From NCBI GenBank assembly GCA_037379345.1, contig CM074511.1, positions 62,812,862 to 62,876,861 on the forward strand: a DNA stretch of 64,000 nucleotides, given 5' to 3'. The position numbers and the translations under genes are program-made. The notes beneath the pieces are model-generated. The model saw nothing but the letters and a program-made list of their open reading frames with translations, was not told the origin of the DNA and did not search any database. Shown one piece after another: positions 40,704-64,000 of this stretch. This DNA comes from Perna viridis. Taxonomy: Eukaryota. Each line of letters starts with the position of its first letter. Positions within the stretch are counted from its first letter, which is position 1.

Positions 40704-42300
40704 ATGTCGTTTTGACATGTAATTCTGAGTAACAGTGAAAAGGCTTTAGATCTATGTCTTGATGAAACGAAAACATAACTTTTATCATAAAATGCGAAAA
40801 TGCACATGAAAATGTGAAATTGACATCACTTAGTAATGATGTTGAAGTGAGATAAACCTAGTACATGAATATACATATTTATTGTGATGTTCTCCTGGAC
40901 AATTATTTTAATGCATAGAAACAAGAAGTCAAATTATTGCTTTAAGTTAAATAAAGTTTTATAGACATCTTATTGTACATTGGTCATAAACATGTACGTA
41001 ATACATGCATTAGTAGTACAGTACACATGTTCAATTGTAAAGACCACGAAGTTTTAAAGTCTGCACGAGCATGTTTAAGACGAATGGTGTTGGTGTGCCT
41101 TCCCCAAAAATGATAGAGCACGGGTTGAAATGGTACAATAAGGGAAAGCAATGGACAAACTGAGTTTAGTAATACAGCATAAGTGTAAACATAATACACA
41201 CTTTCATCTAGTAGTACAAATAATCAATAATTGCTCTCCGAAAACTTCCACCTTTACACGGCGACTTACACTCCTTCGAATTTTAAAGGCTGAATTTTTG
41301 CATAAAACACACCCTTAGGATTTGAACATAAGTATTTCAGTGACAGATATTTGTTTTAAGACTGAACAAGAGGAATTAATATTACACCATGCTTAGGATC
41401 CTTACTTGTTTTAAATTTTGTTTCTCCAACCGGAATGAAGACCCATTATAGAAGAACTGGAAATGAAATAATAGAAAACTTGAACTACTCGTTAAGTAAA
41501 TTATTCTGTCCAGTAGAAATGAGTAATTAGATGAGACAAATGCGACCAAAATTATGGGCGTATTAACGGATACGATTATTGTAATATACAGAGTTCAAAT
41601 TTATCAGCCAATAAATGATGTTATTTAAGACAGACAAAAAGTATCAGATTTTTTAAATACAGTAACCCCTCTTACGAATAAGGGATACAAAAGTAGTAAC
41701 GGAGTATCTGAAACAAATAGAAAAGAATGAAAATATGATTAGGATGGGATATTGGAACCCCAGAAAATAGTTAATTTAGTAATGAAATAGTCCTTAAAAG
41801 GTGCTTCAGCAATGTGTAAAACATAGAAAACTCATTCGACCTATGAATTCACATGTATAAATAATCACAGAGGAAAAACAATACGATCAATCGAAAGAAG
41901 CACCGATTCATCATCTGTTTTTAACCAAGATATTGCGTGCACATCCGGTGATCAGTCGTTTCTAATCCTATCATTTTTTAAATATAAAACGTGTATGTGA
42001 AAAACCTTGAAAAAATGCTTAGAAGAACTTTTTTCAACCATTAAATTACTTTTTGTTAATCAAACAAAGTTTATCTTTGTACAGAAAGTTGCAGGAACAA
42101 AAAACTATACCTTAGCTTGCTGCATGGACCTTAATTTGATCTATGACCTTGATTTCCCGCGGACCTAACATGTCCTAGTTTTCAATAGAAAATAGGATGC
42201 ATTCAATAGAATGCAAAATTCAGAACCGATGGAAGGAATGTCTCGTTATCCTCTCTCTTTCTCGTGTTTTTCTGATAGGTAGAAGCGTGTTTGTTTTAAG

Positions 42301-42721
42301 AGGCGATGAATTAGTCAAAATTATTATTATTCAAGGAGGAACTGAAATATGCATGGAGGTTCTCAATTATTTCGAACCTCCACAATTCGATTTTAGGAGC
42401 TCCTCAAATATTTCTGAATCTCCACAACTCGATTTCAAGACCTCAACGATACGATTTCAGGAGCTCCTCATATATTTCTGGACTTTCACTCTTCGAGTAC
42501 AGAACCTCCATGAATTCGATTTCATAATCTTCTTTAATATTTCTGCACGGACCCCTAAAATACAATGTAATAAGTTATTAATGGAGGTCATAAATACAAT
42601 TGTGGAGGCCAAGGCATTGAGGAGCTGCTGAAATCGAATTTTAGTGGTCCAGAAATAACTGAAGACCATGAATATTATAGGACCTCCTTAAATGATAATA
42701 ATTTTGACTAATTCCGCGCCT
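42301..42721. mobile_element. MITE with long imperfect TIRs
   Basis: AGGCGATGAATTAGTCAAAATTATTAT... at the left matches the reverse complement of ...ATAATAATTTTGACTAATTCCGCGCCT over roughly 100 bp. Confidence 0.75.
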
Positions 42722-43356
42722 AACATATTTGAACAAAAAGCATTAACATTCAAAATTGCAGGTAGGTTCGCCAACCATAATCGATAAATATTCCATTTTT
42801 AATTTGAAAGTCTATATTGTTTAATATAGTTTACTAGTAATTAAATCTTATTTAAAAATGTATGGTTTTATCACCATATGTGGTGAGACAAATTTTCATA
42901 CATTAATTAATCACCTTAAATGATTACCATACTTATTTTATGTAAGGTCACAACCAGATCAAGAACATTCTTTGTTACCAATTTTCCATTATAAGAATTC
43001 GAAATATGTTTGTGCGCATAATGTTTTAAACGAATTAAAGAAAGATGCAGTTACATTATATAGAATCACAACATATATCATTTATAGCCATTTACAACAT
43101 AATAAACTAAGAAGTTTATCGTTGGTATTTACCTTTTGACATGTAAGATACATGCGCAAAAAAACATTTTTGTTTGTGTACACAGCGAGTCCTTGGATCT
43201 TTGTTGTTGTATTCAATAGTTTTTACATACCAGATATAACCAGCTTTTCACTGTTGAACTGAAGATAATTCACCCGAATCTCTCGGTCTTTTATGAATAT
43301 TCATAGATGCATTGCTGACTGTGCTTGTCCAAATACTGTCACAGCATACAACAGCG

Positions 43357-46329
43357 ATGGCTGGAAAGGTAGTGGCTATTCCCGTGGATGGTAGCGATAA
43401 TTCAGACTTCGCTTTAGACTGTAAGTATACTTTTTTTCTGCTGATGAATTTTGATATTTATACTTGTTCAGATGACAGGTGCGCTATAAATATAACGAAT
43501 ATTTTGCAATGAACCGTTGAAGGGTCGTTATAAAATATGCCGTACTCAGAGCCGATAGAAATTGCAATTCTATAACCAAACGGAAAGAAGAAAATATATT
43601 TTGAATTGTAAAACAAGTTAAAACACGTCGTACACAAATTGAGCTGATGCATTGGACAGCTGTTGGAATCCCCACAAAATCCTACAAGAGGAATCGGTAT
43701 GTACTGATGGTTTTATTGAAGAGAGTGTGTATATATATACGAGTATGACTATGAATTATAAGTAGAAAACTAAGCAGGACACGAATACACATGTAAACAT
43801 TATCGACGTCGGTGTCTCTTTACAGTAACAATAGTACAGTACTATTAAATCTACTTTCTTTTGTTGAATTCAACGACAGAACTTAATTCAGAGGGTCAAC
43901 AGTAGTGACGTAGTAAGAATTAACCAATACAAAAATATCAAACTGGTAGAAACAAACGACTTAGTTGATATAATAATGTCCGAAACCCATCACAAAACTA
44001 AACATGAACTGATTTCTTTTTTGACAAATACGTTTGGTATACCATGAATTCGAGATTTTATTGATTACGAACGAAAAATCTACGTATTGTGTTTATCAGG
44101 CATTTGTGTTTTTTCCCACATTACTGTTTCAAATTATTAATTAATCAACTATATCGACAATGCACGCAGCTAGCTCAAGCTATAAAAATAGTATTTAGAT
44201 TTAGAATTTGCGACTTAAGCAACGTTTTAAACATTGCTTTTCAGTCTATGAGAAAAATGTCCGGGCGTCTACTGACAAGGTGATTTTGATACACATTCCA
44301 CAGCTTTATTCCTTGACAGATGCAAGTAAGTCACCTTTGATAGCTATAAAAGCAAGATTATTTGACAAAGAGGTGACAAACCTTCTAATAAAAATTCTTG
44401 CGAAACGCAAAACAAGGGTTATATTTAAAGCTCTGAAATCAAAAGATGTATACTCTTTGTGTATCAAATCGAAGTAAATTTACAACACATACATTTAAAT
44501 TATATATTCTCTTCTTATATCATCTCACCTACATTTGGGAGATATTTAAAAACCCCTTCTTAAGAAAAGACATGTGATAACTTTATGTTGTGATAGTTAT
44601 TCATCTATAAAATACTGTTTAAATAAAAGGTCACCATTGTGGCACTGCAGACATGAAATTTATGCGAATATCAAATGCTCATAAAACGAAAGAATATATA
44701 GATGCTGATACATTTATCAGTAACGATATAAATCGCAAATGATAAATTCTTTTCTACTAATGTGAAATTTTGACTTAAAAAAATTAAGTAAAACAATCAG
44801 AACATGATTTGAGGCTAAGGTGTCTGGATGCGATCTTTTTCAGAGGATCAACACTTGGTTCGAAAAAAAAGAATGCATAGTATAATAGACACATGATGGT
44901 AGCACTGACATACATGTACATGCATATTACCCACCTAAATCTGTTTTACAATGATCCAAACAAATAGATAGTGTGACACCATGTGACACGTAGTGCTTAG
45001 TGCGGCAACTTGGAAAATCCGTTGCCTCACCAATCATAGATTGTCACTTTATAAACTGAAAAACACAAACAACCAAACAAAAAAGAACATTATATTGAGT
45101 ATTTGCGTAGACAATTTTATAACACACGAGCATTAGAGTTCATATAAACAGGCCAATATTATATGTATTATTATAATTCTGTGATATTTCTATTATCGGT
45201 TTGGAATCTGAAATTTCTTTGAAAACAAAATCTGATTGAAGGTTGTGTTAGATCATGGATAGTTGTGGTGTACTCTTACTATTACTTTGATTGCGAATTC
45301 TACATCTGTTTTACAAGACAAATCTTAATTGAAATGAAAAAAATATGGAAAACTTGTCCCGCACTTTGTCACCCTGAAACCTCAAGATTAAATCTCGTCA
45401 TTTCCAAAAGCATTGTTTTATCGATTGAAGGTCCGGGTGTTATCAACGACTTAGTAAAGAAAATGATGGACTCAGCTAACAAAGTTAAAAAACAATACGA
45501 AGATAAACTGAAAGAACGTGGGGTGAGTTAAACCTATATTACCATCATGCTTCCTCTTGTAGTTGTCTTCAATAAAGGCTCGTGGCCCCAAATTGACAAG
45601 GCCCATACTCTATACAATTAGCACTATTTAGGCTTCATTTTAATGGAATAATAATGGACCTGGTTGATGTCAAGTTTGTTGACTTAAGCTTTGTTATGTA
45701 TTTAGTATGATAAAGGCCTTTTTACTTTCTTTTTTTAACCGTTTACACTTCGGAAAGCGCCTTGCAAACTCTCCGTCTTTTTTGTTAAAGAGGACGGAGA
45801 TCTTCTTGTTTGTTGGTCACAGAAGTTGACATGTACCGCATTGTGTTTTTTACACCTTAAGTCTGTCATAGCTTCTGAATGAACGTATTTTTCATTGGTC
45901 CAGTGGTAACTCTTCCCAAGGACATCAAAATTGACAGCAGCTGCTTCTTTTCAAACTTTTTCATATTTGAGATAAGATGATAAATGGTTTGCTTGTAAAG
46001 AGTAAGAAAAGTGTGTTTAAGCGGGTAACACGTTTTCCTTTGGCTTGTTGGAATATAATTGTTATGGATCTGTTAAACCATCCAGCTTACAAGTTTCAAT
46101 TTAACCTTTGACTCTTTTTTTTTAGATAGAAGGAGAGGTAAAAGTTGGTTTAGGAGAAGCAGGAGAACAAATATGTGCCTTTGCTGCCAAATTCGACGCA
46201 ACCATTATAGTAATGGGGTCACGTGGTCTTGGTAAAATACGACGGACATTTTTGGGCAGTGTCAGTGATTACGTTTTGCATCATGCTCATGTACCCGTTT
46301 TGATCTGTCGACCACCCCATACCAAATAA
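43357..46329 (+). CDS. Universal stress protein A-like, copy 3
   Basis: Exons 43357-43420, 44245-44325, 45431-45522, 46126-46329. Protein MAGKVVAIPVDGSDNSDFALDFY...GSRGLGKIRRTFLGSVSDYVLHHAHVPVLICRPPHTK*. Confidence 0.93.
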
Positions 46330-47404
46330 CAGAGACAAAGGCCAAGTCCACTTTGTAATTTATAACCTTGCAATATAAATGTTTACTAAAGTTTGAAGTA
46401 TGAACTAACAAAATTTATGTATTGTCGTAACCATGGTATACTTTTCACCATTTTGTTCATAACTTGTCTCATATTATAGGTAGTATATATATATGAAGTA
46501 TTTGTCTTGTATATTTTGTATGTTACAGGTTTTACTCAACAAATCCTATACCAAACAGGTTCTTTCTTGTTTTCTGCTTTTTAAAGCCTTTCGATTTGTC
46601 TTGGTAATGTAGAACTGTCATATGCATTAACTGATGGAGGATATCTGTCTTCCGAAATATCACATATGATTTTTGTCATCTTCTGGTGATGTTGAACATA
46701 TCAAGACGTTTATTTAAGTTTATGTTATGTCCTGAATTACTCTCTCACTGGTAACAATTTTTCGTCTTTTTTTAAATGAAAAATATTAATTTTGTAATTT
46801 AATTACCGGTATCAACTTAAAGGTAAAAGGTAAATTTATATCTAATTCCGACCAACAGCTACATTTAGAAAATGGTCAATTACAATGTATGCAAGTTCAT
46901 TTTATGCATAGGCTTGGGTATTTTTCTTTTTTTTTCTCTCTGTTTTAAAATCGGCATGTAATACGTTGTAATTGAAAATCTCGACTAACTGAAGTCAGGC
47001 TTATATTATAACCCTTACCATCAATTAGCCATTTCCATCAGAACCCTAAACATTCCTTGCGGACAGACTGGTCTGTCTCGGATCAGTGTCACTGATAATT
47101 CTGTATTCTTAGAGAATATGTGATCCAGTTTAGTCTAAGGAAAAATTTTCAATTTGATGCCAAATGCCGAACAATTTAAAGAAAATGTTCACACGACCTA
47201 CTAAAATCATTGATAAAATAAAAAATGTAGAGCTGTGCTGTGCAAATAAACAAAAATAACCGGAAAATAAAGCAAAAACAGGAACATAAAAAAAGAAAAC
47301 AAAAACAAGCAAAAAAAAAACCAAAAAACAAACAAACAAACAAACAAAATTATCTGTCAAAACTCTTTTTTTTTCAATGAACTGTTAATTGATGACTCAA
47401 TAGT

Positions 47405-47690
47405 TTAAACTTTTGAAAGAGCAATCAAGGGAACCAAGATTCTGGCGGAACATAAAAGAATGTTATCCATGGACAAAGACCAGACATGGAAAACATGCAC
47501 ACACAAAAAAGAACAAGAACATAAAATAACCAAAATAATATATACAAAGTAGCAAAAGTAACTGAACAACTCGGACTCCCTTACAAACTGGGAGTGTGGA
47601 CCAGGTGCACCGGTAGGGTAAGCGTCCTCTGCTGAGACGATACGCTTGGTGTTTAAGTCTATTTGGAGGTAGCACGTGATAATAGGAAAG
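47405..47690 (-). repeat. Dispersed repeat; related copy at ~29600-29810
   Basis: Both loci share GTAAGCGTCCTCTGCT, CAAACTGGG and CAGG(T/C)G(C/A)ACCGGTA. Confidence 0.55.
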
Positions 47691-48248
47691 ATATTGGCAA
47701 TGATCAACATTATATAGCTGGTCTGATATTATATAAGACCTAAAACCATAGACATTGTTGAAAATTACAGAGGTGTATTATCCTCAGTTCTGAAACGCTT
47801 CAAACATTTGCAATTATGATAAAGCAGGTGCAAGAAATTTTTCTACGATACTTCAAAGGTATATGGAAAAAGTATGATGGAGAATATAGACGCTGGAAGG
47901 GGATGAAAAGAATGAGGACTCCATGCTTTTTATGGTCAATTTTGGCAAACAAATAAACGTTATTATCAATTTTTTTATAAACAAAAATGATCTCCAATCA
48001 CTACCCCATCCCTGAATCCACCAACACATTTACAAAGACTGATACTAGCAAGTACTGTGACATGTTCTGCATATCAATATGTTGCGCTACGATGAAACGA
48101 GATCAATAATATACTTCGATTTTCATATCAACTGTCAATACAACTGTGTGATAAATAAATTAGCGACCTCTATGTGTTAAAGGATTCTTTGTAAACGAGG
48201 CGTATATCCAGTCCCGGTGAAGGTCGATTCCACAATCCCCAGGTGAAT

Positions 48249-50389
48249 ATGGCTGATGGAAGTAGAATCGTAGCAGTGGCTGTGGATGGAAGCGTTCACA
48301 GTGACAATGCTTTTAACTGTAAGTATGCTTTTATCAAATAATCAATAGTTATGAAGTAACGAGAATATGAGTAGTTTCTTAATTGCGGAATATTTTACCA
48401 ATTAAACTGCTAAAGATCGTTTCCAGTAAGCTTGATTGTTTGCAAAATAACGTATTTTCGATATTAGAAAATTGATTAATTTTGATACACATTCTGTCCA
48501 TGAACATTCTGTTAATAAAATAAACAAGAGTGATGTACTCGGACATGTTTATGAATTAAGAAACATTTAAATTTCATTTTGTTTGTCATATTAGAATTTT
48601 AAAGTATTATATAGTAGTGTGGGCTAGTTTCTCGAGTACTCTATAATGTGTAGTGTGTGTAAACCAATAATCTTTAAAACTGTGTTATTTTTCACGGCCA
48701 CGTGGTTTTCATATTTTGATATTACTCAAATGCGCCAGTGCATGGAAACAACTCGGTAAACGAGTGTATACTTTAAAACAAACTACATCTATTTTCAGAT
48801 TATGTCAGTGGAGTTCGAATGTCCAACGATCACCTTGTACTTATCCATGTACCTGAAGATTACAACTTTACCGACGCAAGTACGGGTCGGATATTTTTTT
48901 GATAGCACATTTTCTAACTCTGGTTTCTTTCTAATCATAACCACGATGTATTTAATGCCTTCTGCTACGATGGTACAGTCCCATGACGTATATACAGAAC
49001 AAACTAAATAGCTTTGATGGTCGAAACGGATCGTTGTGGTATGCAACTGCATAATTATCCCGAGATTTTGGAAAGGGATGTGGGTTGCAGCCTACTTCTA
49101 TTAATTGCCCATTTTGCCCCCCCCCCACACACAAAAAAAAAAAATTAAAAAAATGCACGGAATTAAAAAAAAATAAAATAAAAAGGGGATGGAGGGTATT
49201 CAAATACCCGAAACCGCTTCCTGTCTTCACCACTTGATACTTTTTGTATGTAACAAACTTTTTAGGTTAACTTTTAAAACTGTTAAGTAGTACTCCACAT
49301 AAGAATCATGGAAAGTGTTATTCATGGTGGGAAAGCTGAAATATTTCTATTTTTTGATATTTAGTAGTTTAAAATGTCATAGTAAACAAAAAGTAACGTG
49401 GCTTTTCATATAGCCCTTGTTCATAGGAGAAAAAGATTATAAAGAATGCACTGTAGAATTCAAAACTAAGGGAGATAACTCTGCAAATGACACTAAAATA
49501 CAATAAAATCTGTTGGATTTTCAATGTTGATTATCTCTTGAAAGCAAATAGATTGGAATGAATAATCATACATTTCATCATATGGACCTATAAAGCAACT
49601 TAAAAACAAAAAAATAAAATATGCAGCCTTTTTTGGGGTGTAGCACATATCACACAATTTGCATGATTCTTACAAAGTCTGCTACTTAAAATTGTACTAC
49701 AGGCAGTAAAAATCATCTCTGCAACATCTTTGGCTTGAAAACATCTTTTTTTTTAATTAATTAGAAAATAATAAGTTTTAAGTGTAAAACATGTCTATAT
49801 GGTTTAAACTATAACATTTTTATTGACTGATTGATTGATTGATTGATTAACTAACTGACTTCTTATTGACAGGTCCAGGAGTTATTGAATCCTTGCTGCG
49901 TAAAATTACAGTGAAGGCAAAGGAGCTGGAAAAACAGTATACTGAAAAACTGAAAGGCCTAGATGTAAGTTCTCGCTGTTTTTTTCGGAAAACAGAGACC
50001 ATGCAACGACCTGCTGTCTCTTTATCTGCTGTCGGTCCCTCGATAATACTGTATACAATATAAGTATACAATATAAGATGATAGCACGATATGCCAATAT
50101 GCCATATGTGGTCTTACAGGTCTGAACGAAAAGAATGTTTTTTTTTCTTTTTTAATTTTTATTTCAGATTAGCTATAAGTTCGAAATTGGATTTGGTAGT
50201 CCCGGTGAACAGATTGTCCGCATTGCAGAAAAGTCTAAAGCTTCTATGATTTTGGTTGGCTCACGTGGGCATGGATGGTTGCGGAGGACTGTCTTAGGCA
50301 GTGTCAGTAGTTATGTACTCCACCATACATCGATTCCCGTCCTTGTCTGTAAACATTTTGAGCAGCTAGAACCGGAAGCCAAGAAGTGA
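48249..50389 (+). CDS. Universal stress protein A-like, copy 4
   Basis: Exons 48249-48318, 48799-48879, 49873-49964, 50168-50389. Protein MADGSRIVAVAVDGSVHSDNAFNYY...GSRGHGWLRRTVLGSVSSYVLHHTSIPVLVCKHFEQLEPEAKK*. Confidence 0.92.
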
Positions 50390-51815: not shown

Positions 51816-52519
51816 CATCAAGGTCACTACTAGACAAGATATTATTAAATAAGAAATATCGATTTCGGCCGAAACGTCACCAACACAATAACATGACACT
51901 GATTAATTCACTACATGATAACCATTTATATATACAGGGTATCCTTACTAGATTTAACAGTAATGAAGTGATAACAATTTTAGAACTTTTGGGAAAAACA
52001 AACGAGGCCCAGTAAATCAAAACCAAGTAATCTTCGATCCCTATATATATATCCATTCAGATTTGGTGGTGTCTTTGATGCTCGTCGGTTTAACACTGTC
52101 TTTTTACATTTTTTGTTTTTATCTGCGTCACCAAAGATAAAAACAGGTCTAGTAATCGCTCGAATTGGTGCGTCCGTCCGTCTGTCACGCTTATGGGTAC
52201 GGTACCTACTTTGTGTAATTTGTAACTAAAAAGTATAAATTAAATATTATTCAAACTTTGCACTGTGTTTATATACATATTGGAGGTGTAAACCCCTTTT
52301 ATGAAGACATTTTATTATTTTCCCTGATATTTTCGGCGTCTTGAACTTAGCCGTATTTAGTCACTTTATAGTGACGATATCTTCCTTGTGAAATCTGTAA
52401 AACAAAGTACGCACATATTGCATCAATTTGTATCGATTGTTTATATTTTCACTCTTCGAATTAAATATAGATGAATAGATGGAAAGAACGAAGGCGACTT
52501 CAAAAGAATATAACTTATG

Positions 52520-53931
52520 GATTGATTTCATAGCTATGTTAAAGATAAGAAACAACAGGTAGTTATACAGACTTGGTCAGATCTTTGCAATACGTCGGAT
52601 GGAGTACCGCAAGGCTCAGTATTTTGACCCCTTTATTTATAAACAATATAAATGACATAGCAGATAGTCTATTTTCCCTTTGTGGAAGTTTTGCTGATGG
52701 TACATCTTTCGGCTACTCGAGCAACAATATAACAGAAGTAAAAATGTTATTGATCGCGATCTTTTATCGTTGGACAAATGGTCAAAAACGTGGTTAATGC
52801 ACTTTAACCCAAATAAAACAAAATTTATGATGTTTTCAAAAGTCGATATTCCAAATATAAATTTCAGTCTGAACGGAAAAGACATTCCGCTTAACAAAAC
52901 TCATAAACATTTAAGAGTTACTTTTAATGACGACGCAATGTGGAACGATCACATAGAAAATCCAGTTACCTAGATTAGAAAGCATATTCTTCGAAATTAA
53001 AAAAAATTAAACTTTCTTGGAATCACTTAAAAAACTATTCAAAGTGTATATCCGCTCTTTATTTGGATATGCTTCGGAAATCTCTGTGATAGTAAACACC
53101 CAAAAGCTGGTAACTTTACACCTCGAAGCTGCTAGAATAATAACTGGCTAACCGATATTCAACAAATCGGAGCAAGTATATAGCGAAATTGGATGGGGCA
53201 AAAACTAGAAGATCGACAAAAACGTAAGAAATTTATTTCATAAAAAATATGATAAAATGGCTCCGGATTATTTACACGACGATTCAATCTACTACAGTAT
53301 ATCCGCTTCGGAATGGTGAAGATATAATTGTTCCTTTTTTTTGTCGGTTGTCGATGATTCGTGATTTTTTTCATCAACAATAATCGAGTGGAATAGATTA
53401 GACAGAACATTGAGAGAGATTCAGGCACAAAAAAATTATTGTGTTTACTGACCGCAAATGATAAATTAACTGTTCCCTAAACATTGTTGTTACAGCCCAA
53501 AAAATTTAAATATATTGATAACTCAACTTCGTAATTCTTCATCCTTTGTAAAATTTGATTTTTATAGAGTCAATATTATACAAAGTCCGTCGTGTCATTA
53601 TGGTCATACATACGAGACTGCTCAGCATTACTTTTTTGTATGCCCTTTTTATAACAATTCAAGAACCAAACTAATGAGCGACCTACAGTGGGTTCTTGAA
53701 TTTTGCAATATAGATCTACATCTACTTGTTGGTCTTGCAGAAAATCTATCAGAAAAACAATATCAGGTTGTGCTGGACCGTGTATATTCCTTCGTTAAAT
53801 GCACTAAAAGATTCCTTATTGCTTGAGCTAAGTTAGTGCATATTACATCACATCACATCTCACCACATTACCTTATGTCATATTTTTATTGTCTCGTTTT
53901 AACTTTGTAAAACATAACACTATTGAATTTG
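52520..53931 (+). mobile_element. 5'-truncated decayed CR1-group LINE, left part (interrupted by the Polinton)
   Basis: GVPQGSV, NINDIAD...FADGT, WSKTWLMHFNPNKTK, HKHLRVTF, and C-terminal ITQLRNSSS...ETAQHYFFVCPFY. ORF ends at 53826. Confidence 0.85.
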
Positions 53932-54062
53932 AGTAGTGTCAAAAGGTCGATTCTACCCCACATGCAGAAATGCTGCATAAAACCCCCAACCCCGACGGCC
54001 AAATGCAAACAGACAGCATCCCTATTGAGCATAGGGTAAATACAAGAATTATGGCTTTCGTA
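53932..54062 (+). repeat. Polinton left terminal inverted repeat
   Basis: Matches the reverse complement of 62615-62745 with 10 mismatches in 131 bp (counted by eye). Confidence 0.95.
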
Positions 54063-57000
54063 CAGAGCACAAGTCAGGTCGCTCCAGCTGAGGATAGTGG
54101 GGATGTGGATAAGGACACCTTAAAGAAAGGTGTGCCAGAGATTGAAATAAATAAAGGGATGACATCCAATAGTGATAATATGAATCGCTACCAGGATTTC
54201 TTTCTGGAGAATGAAGAAGATTTGGAGGATACCACTCCAACCCCAAACCCCCAAAGGCAGCGGGAGTGCTGCGATAAACCCAACGTGATCGAGGTGTATG
54301 AGCATATCCAGCAGTGCCAAAATTGCGGTGCACAATGAACCAAGCCGCGATTTGAGTACCAACAAGGGGAGCAGAAGACCACATGCGGCGTCCCACTCGA
54401 GAGAAAGAAGGGGCAATTCTGCAAGAGCAAGCCCGGGAAGGATGGTCTTTGCTGGAGGCATAGCAAGGAACCACGCCAGCAGGAGGAGGAGGAGGAGGAG
54501 GTCATTCCAATCGTAGGTAAGATCGTGGTCAAAGAGACCACGAAGGCACTCCGTAAAATAGCTAAGGAAGAGGGTCTGAGGCTCAAGAGAGGAGATCTAC
54601 TCCAGCAGGTGGAAGAGAGCATCAGAAGCGCCTCAGTCGAAGATGAGATTAAGATCACCGAATGGTGTATTTGGCACGGTCATCATCGAACCTTTGAAGC
54701 CGCATGACGTAGCTACGTTTCTCAAGCTAAGTCGAAGCACGATCTCCACCCCATCTCAGATGCTCTCGCCCAAAAGAAGGGATTGAAGGTCCACTTAGTG
54801 TTCCTAGTGGACATGGTGAAAACGAGCCCCACGACCAAAGAGAATATCTACATCACCACTCCCTTCAGATCACGCACGACACTGCTCATGGAATCTGACG
54901 ACCTCGACTTGGAGATCGCCTCCATGATGGAGAAGATCAAGGAGAGTATGGCTAGTTATATGCGCGAAGGGAGTGGATGGACTTTCAGCAGCGTCGATAA
55001 GCTAGAAATCCATCTGAACCAATTCAAGCCGCTCAAGGGGAGTTCCTTCATACCGACGCCATCGGCACTCGCGAAAAAGAAGGCGATCGTCAATATGAAG
55101 AATGAGGACGATGCTGCTTCCAGTGGGCGATTCTCTCAGCCCTGCATCTCGACGAGGTGGATCAGAAGCATACCAACCGGGTGAGCCAATACGCGAAATG
55201 GGAGAACGAGCTAAAATTCGAAGGCATCGACTTCCCGGTCTCCCTCAAAGCGATCGATAAATTCGAGAGGCAAAATGCCTCTATCAACGTCTTTGGCTTC
55301 GATGGCATTAAGAAGGGTGAGGATGAGGAAGAGGATCTTCAGGTTTATCCCCTCAGAATATCCAAGGGTACAGGCCCCACCCAAGTAGATATCCTCTTCT
55401 TGACTCGCGAAGGTAAGCAGATTATTGCTGGATCAAGAGCCTCTCTCGACTCCTGAGCTCTCAAATCTCAGAGCACGGCCATGAGCTCTTCTTTTGCCGC
55501 AGATGCCTCTGCCAATTCTGCAGGCAAGATATGCTGGACGAGCATACTGAATATCTGCAGGGAGAAGAAGCCGATGGTGATGAGCAACGAGGATAAGAAG
55601 AGCTTCGAAGCAAGCACGCACTGCCACATCTGCGGCGGCGCATTGAATGGGGATAAGGTCCGGAACCACGACCACCTCACCGATAAGTATCGGGGCGCGA
55701 CACACAACCAGTGCAACCTAGATTTTCAGCTTCCGAAGCACGTGCCCATCATACTCCATCATATCTGAGTGGGTACGATGCCCATCTTTTCGTGAAGGAA
55801 TTCGACGGGGGAAAGATCACCTGCATCCCGAATACGGATGAGAAATATATCAGCTTCTCGAAGCAACTAGACGATGGCCTGGAGATGAGATTCATCGATT
55901 CGTGCAGATTCATGCTCAGCTCCCTCGAAAATCAATTGATGAATCTCACGCCCGATAAATTCAAGGCGGTTTGGGGATGCTCTGGCGATAAGTACGAGCT
56001 AATAATTAGGAAGGGGGTCTATCCCTACGATTACGCCGATGGGCCTGCCAAGCTGGAGGAGACTCAGCTCCCACCCAAGGAGACCTTCTTCAGCACGCTT
56101 ACCGGTGAGCACATCAACGACGAGGACTATGCACATGCTCAGGGAGTCTGGTGGCCTTCGACTACTAGACGCTGCGGGACTATCACAATCTCTGCCTGGA
56201 ATCCGACGTAGCCATACTGGTGGATGTCTTCGAAGACTTCAGGGACATCTGCATGGGAAAATTATGGGCTCGATCCTGCCCACCACTTCACGCCCCCGGG
56301 CTAGCCTATGACGCAGCCCTCAAAACCACCGGGGTCAGATTGGAGCTGCTCTCCGATCCGGACATGCTGCTGATGATCGAGAGGGCAACCAGAGGGGGCG
56401 TCGCCAGGATCTCCCACCGCCACGCCAAGGCCAACAATCCCTACATGGCCGACTACGATCACTCCCAACCCACCAAATATCTCACATACCTCGACGCTAA
56501 TAACCTCTACGGTTGGGCGATGGCACAGCCACGGGAGACTTCGAGTGGATGGAGCCGGAGGAGATCGAGAAGGTCTTTGAGTATATATCCCGACGATCAC
56601 GAGTACGGAGCCATGGTGAAATGCGATCTGGAATATCCGCAAGATCTTCACGACGCCCACGACTACCCTGTTGTGCCGGAAAACGTGGAAAATGACAAGG
56701 TGCGCAAGCTCGTGCCTCATCTAGGCAAGCGCGAAAAATATGCCCTCCACTATCGAAATCTCAAGCTCCACTTATCGATGGACATGAAGCTCGTCAAAGT
56801 CCATCGCATCATAGGGTTCAGGCAATCCCCCTGGCTCAAGTCGTATATCGAGCTGAATACGAAGCTTCGAGCCGCAGCCAAGACCGACTCCTAGAAGGAA
56901 TTTTTCAAGCTCATGAATAATTCGGTCTTCGGCAAAACGATGGAAAATATTTGGAAGCGCGTCGACGTCAGACCAGTCACCACCGCGAAGCAGGCCCTGA

Positions 57001-57668
57001 AGCTCGTGGCCAAACCCAACTTCGATCGCCGCGTCGTCTTCACCGAGAATTTGGCAGCCGTCCATATGAAAAAGACCAAGCTGAAGTTCGATAAGCCCGT
57101 CTACGGAGGAGCATGCATCTTGGATATCTCGAAGCTCCTGATGTACGACTTCCACTACGGATTCGTGAGGAAGACGTACGGCGATAAGGCCCGACTGCTT
57201 TTTACCGACACAGACAGCTTGGCCTACGAAATTCAGACCGTCGACTTCTACAAAAACATCGCGCCACACGTCCAGGAAAAATTCGATACGTCCAACTACC
57301 CCACCGGCGTGAATAAGAAGATCATCGGGATGTTCAGGGACGAGTGCGGCGGCAAGAACATGACCGAATTCGTAGGGCTACGGGCGAAGCTATACGCCTT
57401 CAAGTTAGGGGATGACGAGACCACCACGAAGGCGAATGGAGTCACCAAGAGCGTCATCAAGCGCAGCATCGCCTTCGAGGACTACAAGCGATGCCTCGAC
57501 ACCCAGCAGGAGATTCACCGTCCGATGAATATCATCCGGATCCATCCCCATCAGATCTACACGGAGATCAACAAGATCGCTCTGTCCGCCAAAGATGACA
57601 AGCGCCACATCCTCCCGGACGGCATCAGCACTCTCACCCACGGACACTATCGAATCGCCCGCGACTGA
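54051..57668 (+). pseudogene. polB: Protein-primed family B DNA polymerase (with terminal-protein region and endonuclease VII-like insert), frameshifted
   Basis: EGSGWTF...PLKGSSFIPTP...KKAIVNMKNED, CHICG...VRNHDHLT...YRGATHNQCN, SGYDAHL, RFIDSCRF, RKGVYPYDY, YLDANNLYGWAM, FFKLMNNSVFGKTMEN, LFTDTDSL, EFVGLRAKLY, ALSAKDDKR. Several stops and frameshifts; the true start may be 54051, 54159 or 54180. Confidence 0.95.
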
Positions 57669-57723
57669 CGTCCCCCACCACCCCTCTGCACTTAGCAGGT
57701 TCTGACGGATGCGGATGCCCATA

Positions 57724-58084
57724 CTGTGGAGTAGAGATCGACGTTGTGCTTCCGCAGCATATCCTTCATCTCGCGATTATAAAATTCCGTCCCCTTATCG
57801 GTCCATAGCTTTTTGGGGGTGCGATCCTTGAAGACGGTCCGGAAGGCATCTCGCACCGTGGCACCTTTCTTTTCCTTGAGCGGCACCAGCCAGCCGTACT
57901 TGGAAAAGACGTCGATTATGCTCAAGAGGTACTAGTATTTGAAGCCTCGGTTATCGCAGGAGAAGGCGCTAATATCCACGAGATCGGCAGCTCAGATCTC
58001 GTCCACCCCACCTACCACCACGCGACGCTTCTGGAATTTGCGTCGGATTGGCTTATGCAGCTCTTCGGCTAGTTCATCCGACCA
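57724..58084 (-). pseudogene. Retroviral-like (rve/DDE) integrase, N-terminal half
   Basis: WSDELAEELHKPIRRKFQKRRVVVGGVDEI(*=W)AADLVD...IIDVFSKYGWLVPLKEKKG...PKKLWTDKGTEFYN...VDLYST. Two in-frame stops; truncated before the catalytic Glu. Confidence 0.93.
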
Positions 58085-58520
58085 TACATTTTCCCCCAAA
58101 CCCAGCCCAAATCGCGCTTTAGTGCCGATGATGGGTTTGACGATGCTACGCTCGAAGCGCTCACGTGCGGTGGGGATGGCATCGAGGGAGGCTAGCATCG
58201 TCTTATCGCAGATCGAATTGCGTGCGGCCGTATCCTTGTGCTTGGCATAACAAAGATCGTGGCGATAGGCGACCTCATCGACTCGATTGATGGGCCTCGA
58301 CCAAGGTTTGGGGGTGCCGTCGGCATCGAGTCGCTGGCTGAGTCTGGTCCCCGGACCGGTGAAATTATGCCCAGATAGATGCATTTCGACGGGCATCCGA
58401 TTGATCAGCTTATTCATGAGTCCAGCGCCCTCCTCCGTCTTGATGAATTGCGACTTCAGCGTACCGCACCCGGCGCAGGTCCCCACCTTCTGCCGCCGCC
58501 GTCCGTCATTGCTCGTGATC
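58085..58520 (-). CDS. Parvovirus-type phospholipase A2 domain with upstream CxxCG zinc-ribbon half, in frame with the integrase
   Basis: HLSGHNFTGPGT (Ca-binding loop), PINRVDEVAYRHDLCY (HDxxY catalytic motif), ICDKTML; preceded by CAGCGTLKSQF. The 5' end appears truncated. Confidence 0.88.
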
Positions 58521-58522
58521 AA

Positions 58523-58720
58523 ATGGACGTTGAAGATCTTACCTATGATGAGCCCACCGCGAGTCCTCGGCATAACCACTTTCTCCTCCCACAGCGATCC
58601 ACCCGTGGTCTGCCATCGGGAAATCGGACTGCGGCAAGACTACGCTGCTGAATAACCTCCTCACCATTCCTGACCATCGATCTCACAAGCCCCAAGACGG
58701 CAGGGAAATATCTATGCAAC
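58523..58720 (+). pseudogene. Packaging ATPase (A32/FtsK-like) remnant: N- and C-termini joined
   Basis: MDVEDLTY...PRHNHFLLPQRSTRGL, then a frameshift to IGKSDCGKTTLLNNLL (Walker A; G at 58618), followed almost at once by TIDLTSPKTAGKY, which resembles the ATPase C-terminus. Confidence 0.75.
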
Positions 58721-58837
58721 CACCGTGCTGCATCGAGACCGTACGTGGCCATTAGTGCACGTACCCATCCATATCGGGCAGTGATAAATGTAAGAAGCAC
58801 TCGAAGCTTTTCCCCGAGGCATGCTATCGGTGTGGTG

Positions 58838-58984
58838 ACGCTAAGGGGCGATCGATCCAACGCTTAGGGGCGATCAATCCAACGCTTAGGGGCGATCAAT
58901 CCAACGCTTAGAAGCGTTCGTTCCAACGCTTGGGGGCGATCAATCCAACGCTTGGGGGCGTTCGATTCAACGCTTAGGGGCGAT
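58838..58984. repeat. 22-bp tandem repeat inside the Polinton, ~6.7 copies
   Basis: Unit ACGCTTAGGGGCGATCAATCCA with variants. Confidence 0.95.
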
Positions 58985-59001
58985 GGCGAAGCTATAAATA
59001 A

Positions 59002-59623
59002 ATGACGTTTATCAAGATCACCGATCCCAAGCAATGTGAAGCGCTTGCTCACTACCCATCGAGCAAGCGATGATGAGCACCAGCCTCGGCCCGCGACGCA
59101 CTATCTCCAGCTCAGTATGACTTCCAAGGCCGATCATGCCTTTGGATTGCGAGTGGACGACGATTCCATCATAATCGGAAGTCTGCCCGTCACTTTTGAT
59201 GGAGACGATATTTTCGTCGATTGTAAGCGCTATAAGTGTACCCCTGGCCTATGGGAACTCATGGTGCTGAAGCATCCCAAAGATTTCGACGTGGTAGACC
59301 TGAATACCTATGGCGATATCATACGAGCATCGGGGGCCATGTATTCCATCCTCTCTCGCACTCCAAAGTCCAATCGAAGCCGCAAATGGAAGGAGATTGT
59401 ATCCCACTTTTATAAGCAAGATAAGTATGGCAGCGGGATGCCGACCGTCTTCCTCCCCACGTGCTTCGACCAGCTGCTGGGTCGTCTCGATTTTTGCGCT
59501 GCCGCATACCAGGCTGGAAATAATGGGGTGCGCAACGAAATCGTGGCCATACTCGACGCCATGAGGAAGTCCGGTCATATCAGCAGGGAGGAGTACGAGA
59601 AGCTGCATCGAAGGCTCCTCTAG
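59002..59623 (+). pseudogene. Conserved Polinton/adintovirus hypothetical protein, 5' part disrupted
   Basis: Starts MTFIKITDPK after TATAAATAAATG, then a frame break. Motifs DHAFGL, YKCTPGLWELM, KWKEIV, FLP...RLD...AGNNGVRNEIVAILD are recalled from Polinton accessory proteins. Confidence 0.65.
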
Positions 59624-59634
59624 ATAAATTAACG

Positions 59635-59968
59635 ATGCCTTTAGTATTGAATCACGGTTATCGCCGAAGGTATGCCGTCGGCGGGCGAGGACTATTCGAT
59701 GCCATCACCAATCTAGCAGGACGCGTGCTTACCTCTTCCGCCGTCAAGACGTTGGGTAGTAAGGCCGTGAGCGCTGCTTCCAATGCAGCCCTGAAAGGCG
59801 TGGAGAAAGTTGCGGCTAAGGCCGTGGACCACGTCGTCCATCGAGTGACTCGTAAGAAAAATCCTCCCCCAAGACCAAGAGGACCTCGCAGCAGCAGGCC
59901 CGTCTCAATGATCTCATCTCTGGCGGGGGCATCGCCACCATCCACGACTTCGCTCGGCGCTATAAATA
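59635..59968 (+). CDS. Small basic Ala/Lys-rich amphipathic virion protein (cupiennin-like / adenovirus pVI- or pVII-like candidate); 3' end uncertain
   Basis: YRRRYAVGGRG|LFDAITNLAGRVLTSSAVKTLGSKAVSAASNAALKGVEKVAAKAVDHVV; lies directly upstream of the MCP. Confidence 0.6.
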
Positions 59969-59977
59969 AAATATATA

Positions 59978-61262
59978 ATGGCCGATATGCTTTCTATCAC
60001 CGAAGGACTGACTTTCGATGAAAGTCTCCAGGAGTATCAGGTTCACGAATACGAACCTCAAGCCGGGGCGCAGCTGAATAATGCCGGCGCAGAGATACGC
60101 ATCAATATCGAGAGCCAAGATCTCTTCCTCCACCCCGCCGAAAGCTATCTCTTGATTGAAGGCCGACTTCAGAAGAATGATGGCTCTGCGTATGGCAACA
60201 GCGATCTGGTATCGCTCGTCCATAACGGTGCTATGTATCTCTTTCGTAGCATCAGCTACCGACTCTCCGGCCAGCAGATCGAGCACCTCAACGACCCCGG
60301 CATCGCCACCACCATGCTAGGAATGCTGACGTACCCCGACGACTTCTCCAAATCGCAAGGCCTCAACCAACTATTGTTCAAAGACTCCACGACCAATGCT
60401 GAGGCAGAAAACGTTGGATTTGCAGGACGTCACGGGTATATCATCACCAAGCCAACCAATAAGGGATCCTTTTCTTTCTCCATCCCACTGAAGCACGTCT
60501 TTGGCTTTGCCGAGGACTACGATGAGATCGTCTACGGATTCAAGCACGAGCTTTCCATGGTGCGTGATTCGGATGCTAATGCCATTCTCCGTGCTGCCGC
60601 CGTCAACGACGTGGCCAAAGTAGTATTGAGTAAGGTTTCCTGGTTCGTCTCCCGAGTCATTCCCTCTGACGAAAAAAAGCTGCGCCTCTATAAGACCATC
60701 CAGAGCAAGGCCAAGATCGATTGCGGATTTCGCATGAGGCAGTGCGACTCCATCACCGTGCCGCAGACTTCACAATTTCACTGGCGTCTAGCCGCTAAAA
60801 GCGGGCGAGAAAAACCGCGATGGATCATCGTCACCTTTCCGACCGAACGGAATAATGACCAGCTGCATAATGCCGCTGTCTTCGACCACTGCCGATTGCG
60901 AAATATCCACGTGACCCTCAATGTGGAGCGCTATCCCGCCGTTGAATTCAATGCCGGCTTCACCCAATGCAGTGTCGCTAGGCTCTACAGGGAGGCTTCC
61001 GAATTCTGCAAGAAATTCTATAGCATGGAAAGTCTGCTGAGCAATGGCGGCATCAATCCCTCCGACTTCATCGATCTCTATCCCCTATTCGTCATCGACG
61101 TGAGCCATGTCCGAGCGGTTGAAAGAGTCGAGGGTGGATATCCAGATCCGAGCCGATTTCGAGCGCAACGTTCCTGCCAATACCCAAGCCGTCGCCCTGG
61201 TCATCTCCGATCGAATCCTCCAATTCGAATCCGACGGCCAGACGATGAGCGTCGTCTTCTGA
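59978..61262 (+). pseudogene. Major capsid protein (double jelly-roll, hexon-like) with one frameshift near 61110
   Basis: DESLQEYQVHEYEP...IRINIESQDLFLHPAESYLLIEGRL...FSFSIPLKHVFGFAEDYDEIVYGFKHELSMVR...EKPRWIIV...FDH...ERYP...YPLFVIDVS. The C-terminus continues in another frame as ERLKESRVDIQIRADF...ISDRILQFESDGQTMSVVF* (TGA 61260-61262). Confidence 0.9.
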
Positions 61263-61271
61263 GGAGGGTAA

Positions 61272-62018
61272 ATGGACGCTTCACTTTTGCGGAAAATCGC
61301 CACCAATACCGAGCCCAAACACGGGTTCTCCTTCATCGTCTCTGGGAACGATAGCCAGATCTTGACCTGCTTCAACCCACCCATCCAACTGCGCGAGGAG
61401 AAAGCTTACGAGATGGCCCTCGTGAATCTGGAGACGTACTACTCCATCCCCAATATTCATGTAGCTAATAATTCCTTCCTTCCGCTACTCTCCCGATGAT
61501 GTCGCACTGAGCACCGGCTCTTATGGCATCGACGATATCAATGATAAGATCCAGCGGCAACTGCGGCTCCATAAGCACAAGGCTAAGATCCTTCTCGATG
61601 CCAATCGCGCGACTCTGTGAGCAACCCTCACCCACGCCAGTAATTATCAAGTGGATTTCGACGTGCCCAATAGCCTAAATACGGTGCTTGGATTCGAGCG
61701 CCGGACGTATACCTACGACCGAAGCACCAACGGCTACGCGGAGGGTGAGCGCATCGCCAATATCATCAGCATCAATAGCATCCTCGTGAATAGCGATATC
61801 ATTCACGGAAGCTACGTGGACGGCACCCAGCAGTCCACCATCTATAGCTTCTTTCCCGCGGTCGATCCGGGCATGAAAATCATCCAGACCCCCAAGAATC
61901 TGGTCTAACCCTGAGGACCATCGACCGCATGCAGACGTATCTGACCGATCAGGACGGTCGCCCCATCGATATGCGAGGGGAGCATCTCACCATCCGCTTT
62001 CATCTGCGTGAGGTATAA
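61272..62018 (+). pseudogene. Minor capsid protein (penton), frameshifted
   Basis: FNPPIQL...YEMALVNLETYYSIPNI...NNSF; GSYGIDDIN; NSLNTVLGF; NIISINSILVNSDIIHGSYVDG...IYSFFPAVDPGMKIIQTPKNLV; LTDQDGRPIDMRGEHLTIRFHLREV*. Confidence 0.88.
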
Positions 62019-62022
62019 ATGA

Positions 62023-62124
62023 ATGGATTATCAAGAGTACGGTCTGAACTTGACGAAAGGTCAAGCGGAAAAAATCCAGCATGCGGCAAAGAAGGGATGT
62101 CCCATCTTGGGCATGCTCCTCTAG
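62023..62124 (+). pseudogene. Collapsed remnant of a conserved Polinton accessory gene
   Basis: MDYQEYGLNLTKGQAEKIQHAAKKGCP joined to ILGMLL*; resembles the N- and C-terminal motifs of a normally longer adintovirus protein (recall). Confidence 0.5.
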
Positions 62125-62134
62125 GTATAAATAA

Positions 62135-62478
62135 ATGGACTCGTAGACTCTAGGAAGCAATCCTACAGGCAAGCTAGGATCAAATCGACCGAGCGAGAGC
62201 TCAAATCCGAAATGCACAAGTACAACTGACTGTCGAGGATCTATAAGCGAGTGGACAAAGTGGTGTCTTTTGCTCTAGATACATGTGCCGTGCTCAATGT
62301 CATTTGCACCACCGGTACACTCAGCACTGCCACAACAGGGATAGGTGCCCTGGCATGTATTCCCTTGAGCTCACTAGCCATCCTGAATTCGATCGGAATG
62401 GTGGTATTGACGGTCCTATCCAAACGCATCCGCAAGAAACGCATGAAGCATGAAGACACCGTGCGTATCGTCAAAACC
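62135..62478 (+). pseudogene. Coiled-coil plus two-hydrophobic-helix protein (adintovirus gasderminX-like), 3' truncated
   Basis: YRQARIKSTERELKSE...IYKRVDKVV...ATTGIGALACIPLSSLAILNSIGMVVLTVLSKRIRKKRMKHEDTV; start follows TATAAATAAATG. Confidence 0.55.
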
Positions 62479-62626
62479 TACCGTCCACCTCTATCACCTC
62501 CATGATCTTGTAGATTACCCCGATGGGTAGGTCCTTCCATTTCTGAGCTTCCTGACTCTGCTCCTCGACCTTTTCCTGGAAGAAATCTTCACTGATGAAG
62601 TCTTCTCCGATAGATACGAAAGCCAT
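62471..62626 (-). CDS. Small acidic ORF starting inside the right TIR (51 aa; possibly a truncated OB-fold/ssDNA-binding protein)
   Basis: MAFVSIGEDFISEDFFQEKVEEQSQEAQKWKDLPIGVIYKIMEVIEVDGRF*; too short for the supplied ORF track. The function is inference. Confidence 0.55.
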   Translation of the reverse strand: MAFVSIGEDFISEDFFQEKVEEQSQEAQKWKDLPIGVIYKIMEVIEVDGRF

Positions 62627-62745
62627 AATTCTTGTATTTACCCTATGCTCAATAAGAATGCCATCCCTTTACATCTGGCCGTCGGGGTTGGGGGTTTTAT
62701 GCAGGATTTCTGCATGTGGGGTAGAATCGGCCTTTTGACACTACT
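62615..62745 (-). repeat. Polinton right terminal inverted repeat
   Basis: Reverse complement of 53932-54062. Confidence 0.95.
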
Positions 62746-62751
62746 AATTTG

Positions 62752-62865
62752 TATGCCTATACTTTATTGTAATTACTATTATTTCAGGAGAAGACTTCAT
62801 AATACGTTATTTTACTTGTGTCTGATCCATTTTGTTTATTACAAATAAAATATGTTTAAACTAAA
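62752..62865 (+). mobile_element. 3' terminus of the interrupted CR1-group LINE
   Basis: GGAGAAGAC...ACTTGTGTCTGATCCATTTTGTTTATTACAAATAAAATATGTTTAAACTAAA matches the 3' end of the related LINE at 34575-34660 on the minus strand. Confidence 0.8.
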
Positions 62866-64000
62866 AATATAATTTAAAAGATAGGCTTGTTTGGTGTAAA
62901 TATTGTTAATTGATAATATTGTTGTCCTTGATATAATTTCACCATTCTGAATGCATGTAGCATCGTAGCAGTGAGCCAGTTTGGGTAATATTTAGGTTCG
63001 TTGTCGGTTTACATTTAACACATGTCCTGTTAAAAGTGTGTATTTCTAAGCATCTAGTTGAAGAGACACGTATATAAACTTTTGAAACGCCGAACTCTTA
63101 GAGTATTATTTCAGCAATAAGGTCTGCGTGCACTTTTAAGTTCATAGAGCACAACATCTTGTACCACATATACAATCATTGATACACCTGGTTCTGAAAA
63201 CCCAGTTTCTTAACAGACAATCAAATTGAAGTATGTATCTGGTTTCTTGATCGTTACCCATTCCCTTTATAAAAATAATTATTTGGAGCCGCCACTGCAT
63301 CAGCTCTCCGGATGTATTCTTAGCATACCTCTTTATACGCTCTACACGTTGACGTACTCTCAAATAGTTAAGAGTGGGGAAACGCTCTCGGACCCACGTG
63401 GGGTATGGGAGTAGGCCATAACTTCAACACAGCAGCCCAGCCGATAGTAGGACACACTCTGACCGAGTCCTTCTGTCAGGTACCCCGAAGGCTGAGCTCC
63501 ACTACCTCTAACTACTAACCAATATCTAACAGAATTCTCGTACGGGGCGGTCGTGTGATATCTCTGTAAGGATAGTCAAGACCGTAAAAAATCATCATTA
63601 CCTCTTCATATTTCCTTTTTTATGACTATTTATAATCTTTTTGGGGGTTAATTCTTAGCTCAAAATCAAATAGCACAGCTACTACGCGTCTAAGGATCTA
63701 TAGACAACATGAATAATGACTGTTAACAATTGGTTTATTCGGAAATGTAGATGCATAGAAATGCATAATATAACTAATAAGATGTTAGAGGTCAACTATT
63801 TTGAATTGGACCATTGGTAATCCCACACTGTTTTTTCTAACTTCCTTAGTATTTTTATTTAGCATTCATATTGAAGATATTATTGTGCTGACAAACATAT
63901 AAAGGTGAAGCAGGTCCAGGAATTCAGAAAAGTCCATAATTATTAGATGTACTACTCGATTTATCAATATCCATCAGTCCAAAGTTTCGAGGTGAGCCTC

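Follow-up and report, generated by a model that had tools for sequence, protein, structure and literature searches.

The element considered here, very probably a decayed Polinton that carries a fused phospholipase A2 (PLA2)-integrase gene, occupies 8,814 bp at 53932-62745 of a 64,000-nucleotide window of Perna viridis DNA (assembly GCA_037379345.1, contig CM074511.1, positions 62,812,862 to 62,876,861 of the forward strand; coordinates below are those of the window). The element begins with AGTAGT and ends with ACTACT, i.e. (AGT)2//(ACT)2, and is bounded by 131-bp terminal inverted repeats (TIRs), of which the left (53932-54062, plus strand) starts with (AGT)2 and the right (62615-62745, minus strand) has (ACT)2 at its plus-strand end. 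The arms are complementary at 121 of 131 bases (10 differences) and form the sole inverted repeat longer than 27 bases among the 9 pairs found in 52000-64000. Perfectly matching copies of AATTTG at 53926-53931 and 62746-62751 constitute a 6-bp target-site duplication (TSD), a match expected by chance at approximately 5e-4 as computed from the flank composition. The GC content is 52.4% in the element and 33.1% outside. An earlier interpretation of this DNA made from its letters alone (the sequence-only reading) had described the ends, TIRs, TSD and GC-rich island exactly as they are found. The tandem AGT is compatible with sliding-back protein priming, and (AG)3 or (AGT)2 ends with a 6-bp TSD are the published signature of Mavericks (PMC8097293).

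The Polinton sits in the 3' untranslated region or 3' tail of a host long interspersed nuclear element (LINE). The remnant of this LINE at 53470-53931 (plus strand) contains a weak zf-RVT match (E 0.08) in an open reading frame (ORF) remnant that stops at 53826, and its tail resumes on the far side of the element at 62746-62865, where 62814-62865 resembles the tail of a second LINE at 34579-34632 (89% over 54 nt). Both TIRs stop nine bases past an ATG, at 54051 (plus strand), which opens the polymerase frame within the last 12 bases of the left TIR, and at 62626 (minus strand). The TIR appears to provide the promoter and start codon for a pair of genes that both read inwards. One is the polymerase, and the other is a small ORF at 62471-62626 (minus strand), which starts within the right TIR, is probably truncated and gave uninformative results in Pfam and in the Atlas (best score 0.76).

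The best-preserved gene is the capsid (MCP) pseudogene at 59978-61262 (plus strand), for which the sequence-only reading had proposed a double jelly-roll product and had asked for a profile or structure search. A Pfam scan of 22 frames, in which the matches were DJR-like_dom, rve and Phospholip_A2_4, assigns the frame 59966-61351 to DJR-like_dom (PF21738, E 5e-43). A model of residues 1-377 (pLDDT 77, pTM 0.80) was compared with 48,161 chains, and the PBCV-1 capsid (Z 19.2, root-mean-square deviation (rmsd) 3.4, 302 aligned) and the Sputnik capsid (Z 17.9) were matched; the top 15 rows, from Z 19.2 to 8.7, are all viral capsid or capsid-scaffold proteins. Foldseek also returned PBCV-1, faustovirus and poxvirus D13, with a best E of 2e-7 and low TM scores of approximately 0.3, and viral capsids were matched in BFVD. 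By Pfam and by its predicted fold, the capsid gene is a double jelly-roll gene, and the sequence-only reading withstands the refutation that it had itself proposed for 59978-61262. A search with the unbroken 377-aa piece yielded 1,205 relatives among 2,700 candidates, the closest being an intact 429-aa protein (P0001; 92% identity, 18 member sequences) and the closest named ones those of Mytilus trossulus (80%) and M. edulis (79%). The window capsid covers 428 of the 429 residues of P0001 with a single frame change near 61109 and zero stops, in agreement with the one frameshift previously proposed.

The pPolB pseudogene (54051-57668, plus strand) was delimited by tblastn with two intact polymerases, P0171 and P0172, the alignment of the latter beginning at 54051. 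It contains stops at 54336, 54705 and 56892, shifts frame at least five times (near 55112, 55421, 55570, 55765 and 56160) and has internal losses of approximately 45 residues near 54560 and 96 near 55570, and it covers 1,148 of the 1,319 residues of P0171 and 1,192 of the 1,368 of P0172. The C-terminal piece produced 7,695 matches among 8,000 candidates scored; the closest is P0171 (1,319 aa, 89% over the query), followed by Mytilus proteins at 77-84%. None of the window polymerase pieces matches DNA_pol_B_2 (PF03175), and intact relatives match it weakly (E 1e-22 to 1e-25, approximately 80-90 bits). Terminal protein and vOTU domains are described at the N-terminus of Polinton pPolB (PMC11161782); no Pfam match for either was found in P0171 or P0172.

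The packaging ATPase is reduced to an A32/FtsK-like remnant at 58609-58720 (plus strand), in which a Walker A stub (58615-58662, 81% over 16 aa) abuts a weak C-terminal stub (58658-58720, E 0.07). The comparison protein is a 257-aa relative from a Polinton fragment, L001, that matches Pox_A32 (E 8e-10), and its residues 46-229 are absent from the window. A full-length ATPase was rejected: six frames contain two Walker A-like matches, one of them spurious, and only the stubs align. Of published Polintons, 74% encode a cysteine protease of the adenain-like type; here it was found neither by Pfam in the 22 frames nor by four motifs, and it has possibly been deleted. The lineage may lack a protease, or the protease may be located beyond the polymerase. 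In the structural half of L001 (3858-11329; the contig is incomplete), a protease gene was likewise not seen.

Between the polymerase and the ATPase remnant lies a pseudogene on the minus strand (57692-58576) in which a partial zinc ribbon, a parvovirus-type PLA2 domain, a linker and the N-terminal half of an rve integrase follow one another in one frame, with Pfam matches to rve (PF00665, E 9e-9) and Phospholip_A2_4 (PF08398, E 5e-7). Two stops, at 57994 and 57934, interrupt it, and it breaks off near 57725 and lacks approximately 190 C-terminal residues, which comprise the remaining catalytic core and the chromodomain. An intact relative (P0121; 446 aa, 13 members) contains PLA2, rve and chromodomain, and the window aligns with its residues 3-257 in a single high-scoring segment pair (HSP) at 80% identity. 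PLA2 and integrase are one reading frame in the window and in P0121. In the model of P0121 (pLDDT 76, pTM 0.51), separate PLA2-like and integrase domains are joined by a disordered linker of low confidence (residues 131-155), and the integrase part matches foamy-virus integrase (Z 21.2, rmsd 5.0, 237 aligned). Of the genes named by the sequence-only reading, MCP, rve and PLA2 were recovered by Pfam and pPolB and the putative penton by tblastn, whereas the ATPase consists of two stubs, and PLA2 and integrase, listed as two genes, share one frame.

An intact PLA2-rve-chromodomain fusion is present in a close relative, and, as judged from the alignments, the architecture recurs across distant lineages. 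From 834 candidates, 50 matches longer than 340 aa were obtained; 45 carry both Pfam domains (PLA2 and rve), and 28 keep both PLA2 motifs and all three integrase catalytic motifs. A search of 1.84 billion representatives with only the PLA2 part gave 1,196 matches, the best 150 of which were analysed; 60 were dropped because their alignment fell short of the PLA2 domain end, which leaves 90. An in-frame run from PLA2 into the integrase start is present in 18 of the 90 (17 of 108 at a looser cut), and these 18 share 39-67% identity with P0121. In-frame forms occur in clusters of up to 365 members, and Atlas clusters of 111, 72 and 184 members have rve on 93-100% and PLA2 on 78-99% of their members; the architecture is already in databases under automatic names. 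Only 2 of 41 fused proteins have a methionine after the end of PLA2 and ahead of the first catalytic Asp. The motif His-Asp-x-x-Tyr is kept in 46 of the 50 long matches and 15 of the 18 fused representatives. G-x-G stands at the boundary in 40 of 43 long matches that have the integrase start motif, in 16 of 18 fused and in 52 of 72 unfused representatives; since it is frequent in the unfused ones too, it is part of the PLA2 domain and no proof of cleavage. DUF5679 precedes PLA2 in many relatives. No published description of the fusion was found in a search that lacked most subscription papers, RepBase, the slide and sequence files of Starrett et al. and the bioRxiv supplements.

Lesions are present in every gene examined, and the copy is defective, as previously proposed, with heavier decay than had been stated owing to the losses in polymerase, integrase and ATPase. 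Summing the uncovered residues, approximately 2.7 kb of coding sequence is lost across six genes, a figure that divergence of L001 could inflate, and the parent element probably measured 11.5 kb or more. In a capsid tree of 38 rows (30 best matches, 6 further ones, L001 and the window), the window capsid groups with both Mytilus proteins in a supported clade of 11 rows, and its terminal branch is 0.083 versus 0.0088 for its sister P0001. It deviates at 15 of 154 conserved columns, the maximum among the other 111 rows being 13. The long terminal branch, the conserved-column departures and the scattered lesions support decay in place, as far as sequence can indicate. The present copy is inactive on its own; the most that it could undergo is mobilisation of its intact ends by a helper.

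The proposal that intact siblings may exist holds at the level of single genes only, in that intact homologues exist for all three genes searched (the capsid P0001 at 92%, the polymerase P0171 at 89% and the integrase fusion P0121 at 80%). In a scan of GTDB, 48 candidate stretches led to 2 loci; these are relatives of approximately 55% identity, and neither is a whole element: the 14.7-kb L001 (1-14689) and a 3-kb Polinton fragment, L002 (1-3162). Both contigs are probably of animal origin and were binned into bacterial metagenome-assembled genomes. An ORF of L001 at 11552-12685 resembles a Penelope-type retroelement by eye and has no Pfam match.

The remaining structural block, all on the plus strand, was identified mainly through L001. 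The pseudogene at 61272-62018, with frame changes near 61479 and 61905 and one stop, gives three HSPs to a 259-aa ORF (E 4e-58); from its position we take it to be the putative penton (minor capsid) gene, and it has no Pfam match. It is followed by an N-terminal stub of a probable core protein at 62023-62124 (38% over 26 aa to a 192-aa ORF, E 0.003, which itself matches Adeno_PX weakly, E 0.017) and by a broken, truncated gene for a hydrophobic-hairpin protein at 62135-62505 (25% over 110 aa to a 231-aa ORF, E 2e-5), presumably GasderminX-like. Upstream of the capsid gene, a small amphipathic-looking protein at 59635-59966 (45% over 65 aa to a 155-aa ORF, E 6e-13; weak Antimicrobial_7 match, E 0.03) is split over two frames relative to the Mytilus protein P0011; we presume it to be cupiennin-like from our reading of Starrett et al. 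A conserved Polinton protein, broken near its start, lies at 59002-59623 (34% over 181 aa to a 290-aa ORF, E 8e-27) and matches no Pfam family at the cutoff.

Between the ATPase remnant and this block stands a 22-bp tandem repeat of 6.7 copies (58838-58984). A hairpin role for the array was rejected (folding z -1.46, 17 of 200 shuffles as good). In L001, a 12-bp array precedes the gene homologous to that behind the 22-bp array. All four copies of TATAAAT in the element (58993, 59961, 62014 and 62126, plus strand) lie at most 17 bases upstream of predicted structural-gene starts, the shuffle control giving a mean of 0.7 and a maximum of 5, and the motif probably serves these genes in common as a late promoter or start signal. 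The CpG observed/expected ratio is 1.02 in the element versus 0.57 in host DNA despite the heavy decay, and this lack of depletion suggests that the element was unmethylated in the germline.

Elsewhere in the window, the second LINE (34579-36573, minus strand) is 5'-truncated and retains reverse transcriptase remains. HROB-like exons (3173-3565 and 19044-20201, plus strand; E 7e-6 for one exon) with a long low-complexity C-terminal extension lie to the left of the element, and a tandem array of at least 4 universal-stress-protein (Usp) genes of this animal genome extends over 31351-50386 (plus strand; exons at 31351, 40503, 46126 and 50156). No Pfam-recognised exon of a host gene was found on both sides of the insertion in the 133 of 684 candidate host frames scanned; a long intron is possible.

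These features make it very probable that the element is a Polinton, a eupolintovirus in present and an adintovirus in former terms, whose polymerase is probably of the Beta or group-1 type and which was integrated once in the germline and then decayed in place. Polintons/Mavericks constitute the Eupolintoviridae (formerly Adintoviridae) of the class Polintoviricetes (PMC12451622). The element shares with them pPolB, rve integrase, double jelly-roll capsid, a putative penton, remains of an A32-like ATPase, TIRs, (AGT)2//(ACT)2 ends and 6-bp TSD, but is 8.8 kb long through deletion rather than the usual 15-20 kb, yielded no protease and has its integrase fused to PLA2. The earlier view of a germline-integrated, capsid-encoding Polinton or adintovirus is upheld by the ends, the TSD, the capsid fold and the position in the host LINE tail. 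In the published surveys, 96% of vertebrate Maverick copies are defective (PMC8097293), bivalve genomes contain 107,631 dsDNA viral regions, 58.5% of them assigned to Orthopolintovirales (10.1101/2025.04.19.649669), and Mavericks occur in all mollusc genomes surveyed in PMC10294476. The element is an ordinary dead Polinton, and the fused PLA2-integrase is a modestly novel architecture.

Beta placement is likely, rather than shown, from the polymerase comparisons. A motif that we take to mark group 1 is present in 117 of 120 polymerase matches, and one that we take to mark Alpha in 0 of 120. Candidate ORFs of the element, which have homologues in L001, may also correspond to the GasderminX and Cupiennin genes of Beta adintoviruses. 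The weak PF03175 scores fit the Beta polymerase (Betadintovirus), a divergent OTU-PolB class less than 30% identical to the pfam03175 type, and the Beta adintoviruses of the Terrapene type likewise have polymerases only weakly like pfam03175 (PMC8502044). Unlike these, the element has a PLA2 domain, which is characteristic of Alpha virion modules, where it belongs to a PLA2X gene of its own whose product has a pX domain at the C-terminus (PMC8502044); in the window and P0121, PLA2 is instead in frame with rve. A Mytilus adintovirus listed in the Alpha panel of Starrett Fig. S2 (PMC8502044) is probably another lineage. The Mytilus Polinton proteins P0005, P0011, P0172, P0174 and P0176, annotated as uncharacterised or hypothetical, are 77-84% identical in capsid or polymerase and share the supported capsid clade, but they are not identical, which makes the element a sister subfamily.

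Stand-alone CAP/PLA2X forms of PLA2 are known in Polintons (PMC5803895, PMC8502044, PMC3671162), and PLA2 is common in one Maverick group (10.64898/2026.06.19.733378). The insect Maverick CAP/PLA2 gene (PMC5803895) and parvovirus VP1 PLA2 belong to the same Pfam family and share the Gly-Pro-Gly and His-Asp motifs; in the insect Maverick, however, PLA2 is a stand-alone ORF, and integrase plus chromodomain form a separate one (PMC5803895). In stony-coral polintoviruses, more than 40% of regions encode a protein with DUF5679 (PMC11131425), the domain that precedes PLA2 in many relatives of the element, and the main text of that paper does not contain 'phospholipase', 'PLA2' or 'fused'.

Several observations weigh against parts of this interpretation. 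PLA2 is a reported Alpha-module trait, at odds with Beta placement, and the large deletions would be dated to before or after insertion only with the DNA of a sibling element. As regards the fusion, 72 of the 90 representatives lack it (stand-alone or broken), both Pfam domains are found at E 1e-3 in just 6 of the 150 (those long enough to score both), and many of the 50 long matches are mutually similar, possibly copies from few genomes. The PLA2-like helical domain of the P0121 model matches rice PLA2 at a middling level (Z 7.9, rmsd 3.3, 86 aligned), and the best E of the PLA2 domain sequence against solved structures is only 0.18. In L001, PLA2 and integrase lie in different frames at an A-run, and packaging and cleavage of the fusion are inferred.

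The 8.8-kb form might be a non-autonomous, defective-interfering-like subfamily, in which the deletions predate the insertion and a helper Polinton copied and integrated the element; the TIRs and TSD are whole while six genes have lost coding sequence, and the deletions hit trans-acting functions (integrase core and ATPase). We consider this unlikely, because the scattered deletions are mixed with stops and frameshifts and the terminal branch is long, as in decay in place; moreover, the TIRs differ at 10 positions and no second copy is present within the window. Far more improbable is an assembly chimera or contaminating viral contig. The sharp GC step and the mis-binning of related contigs would agree with it, but the TSD is perfect, the decay is of pseudogene level and the LINE tail continues across the insertion, which makes a chimeric assembly unlikely.

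The fusion itself admits two other explanations. PLA2 and integrase could normally occupy two frames that programmed recoding connects at an A-rich linker, the in-frame fusion being derived. In keeping with this, the frames of L001 differ at its A-run, no Met precedes the first catalytic Asp in its integrase frame, and most representatives stop soon after the PLA2 domain. However, among 42 short-tailed unfused representatives the tails are compatible with a frame offset of 3 as well as one of 5, which random indel decay or homopolymer error explains better, and in-frame forms occur in large clusters; since both offsets occur, one conserved programmed frameshift at the junction is unsupported, and recoding appears improbable. 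The tail patterns were devised after inspection of the tails, which makes the shuffle controls optimistic. The PLA2 of the fusion could also be unrelated to entry, either a neutral by-product of adjacent genes or a DNA- or membrane-tethering module. Stand-alone PLA2 genes are commoner, and adjacency makes fusion an easy accident, yet the retention of His-Asp-x-x-Tyr and the occurrence of the fusion in sequences just approximately 40% identical speak against this explanation, which we regard as doubtful although less so than recoding.

In Polintons, replication of the linear genome starts at the TIRs and is carried out by a polymerase that a terminal protein primes, while the particle is assembled and filled by capsid, penton and ATPase. 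The present element was inserted into the germline by an rve-type enzyme, which left the 6-bp TSD, and it later decayed. Parvovirus PLA2 domains act in entry (PMC8502044, PMC4061559), and by this analogy the fused integrase would be carried inside the particle, a reading that we rate as less likely than not. Once packed, the fusion may help through its PLA2 part to breach the endosome, and the integrase would arrive together with the genome, possibly freed by cleavage at the conserved G-x-G boundary, a Gly-rich site of the kind that adenain-type proteases prefer. More broadly, and again with less than even probability, a widespread subgroup of aquatic-animal Polintons may make a virion polyprotein that contains its integrase (zinc ribbon, PLA2, G-x-G and basic linker, rve, chromodomain) and may integrate on entry in retrovirus fashion before viral expression, an intact infectious member circulating in mussels.

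By itself the element enlarges a class already known to be very large by one dead copy. Of more interest is the fusion, which does not respect the proposed division of accessory genes between Alpha and Beta and is a cheap target for study, as mussels are easily sampled and public data already include intact sibling genes. The fusion bears on whether Polintons form particles and on how an incoming genome is integrated: if the proposal is true, the integrase would be a virion component, and integrase peptides would be predicted to co-sediment with the capsid.

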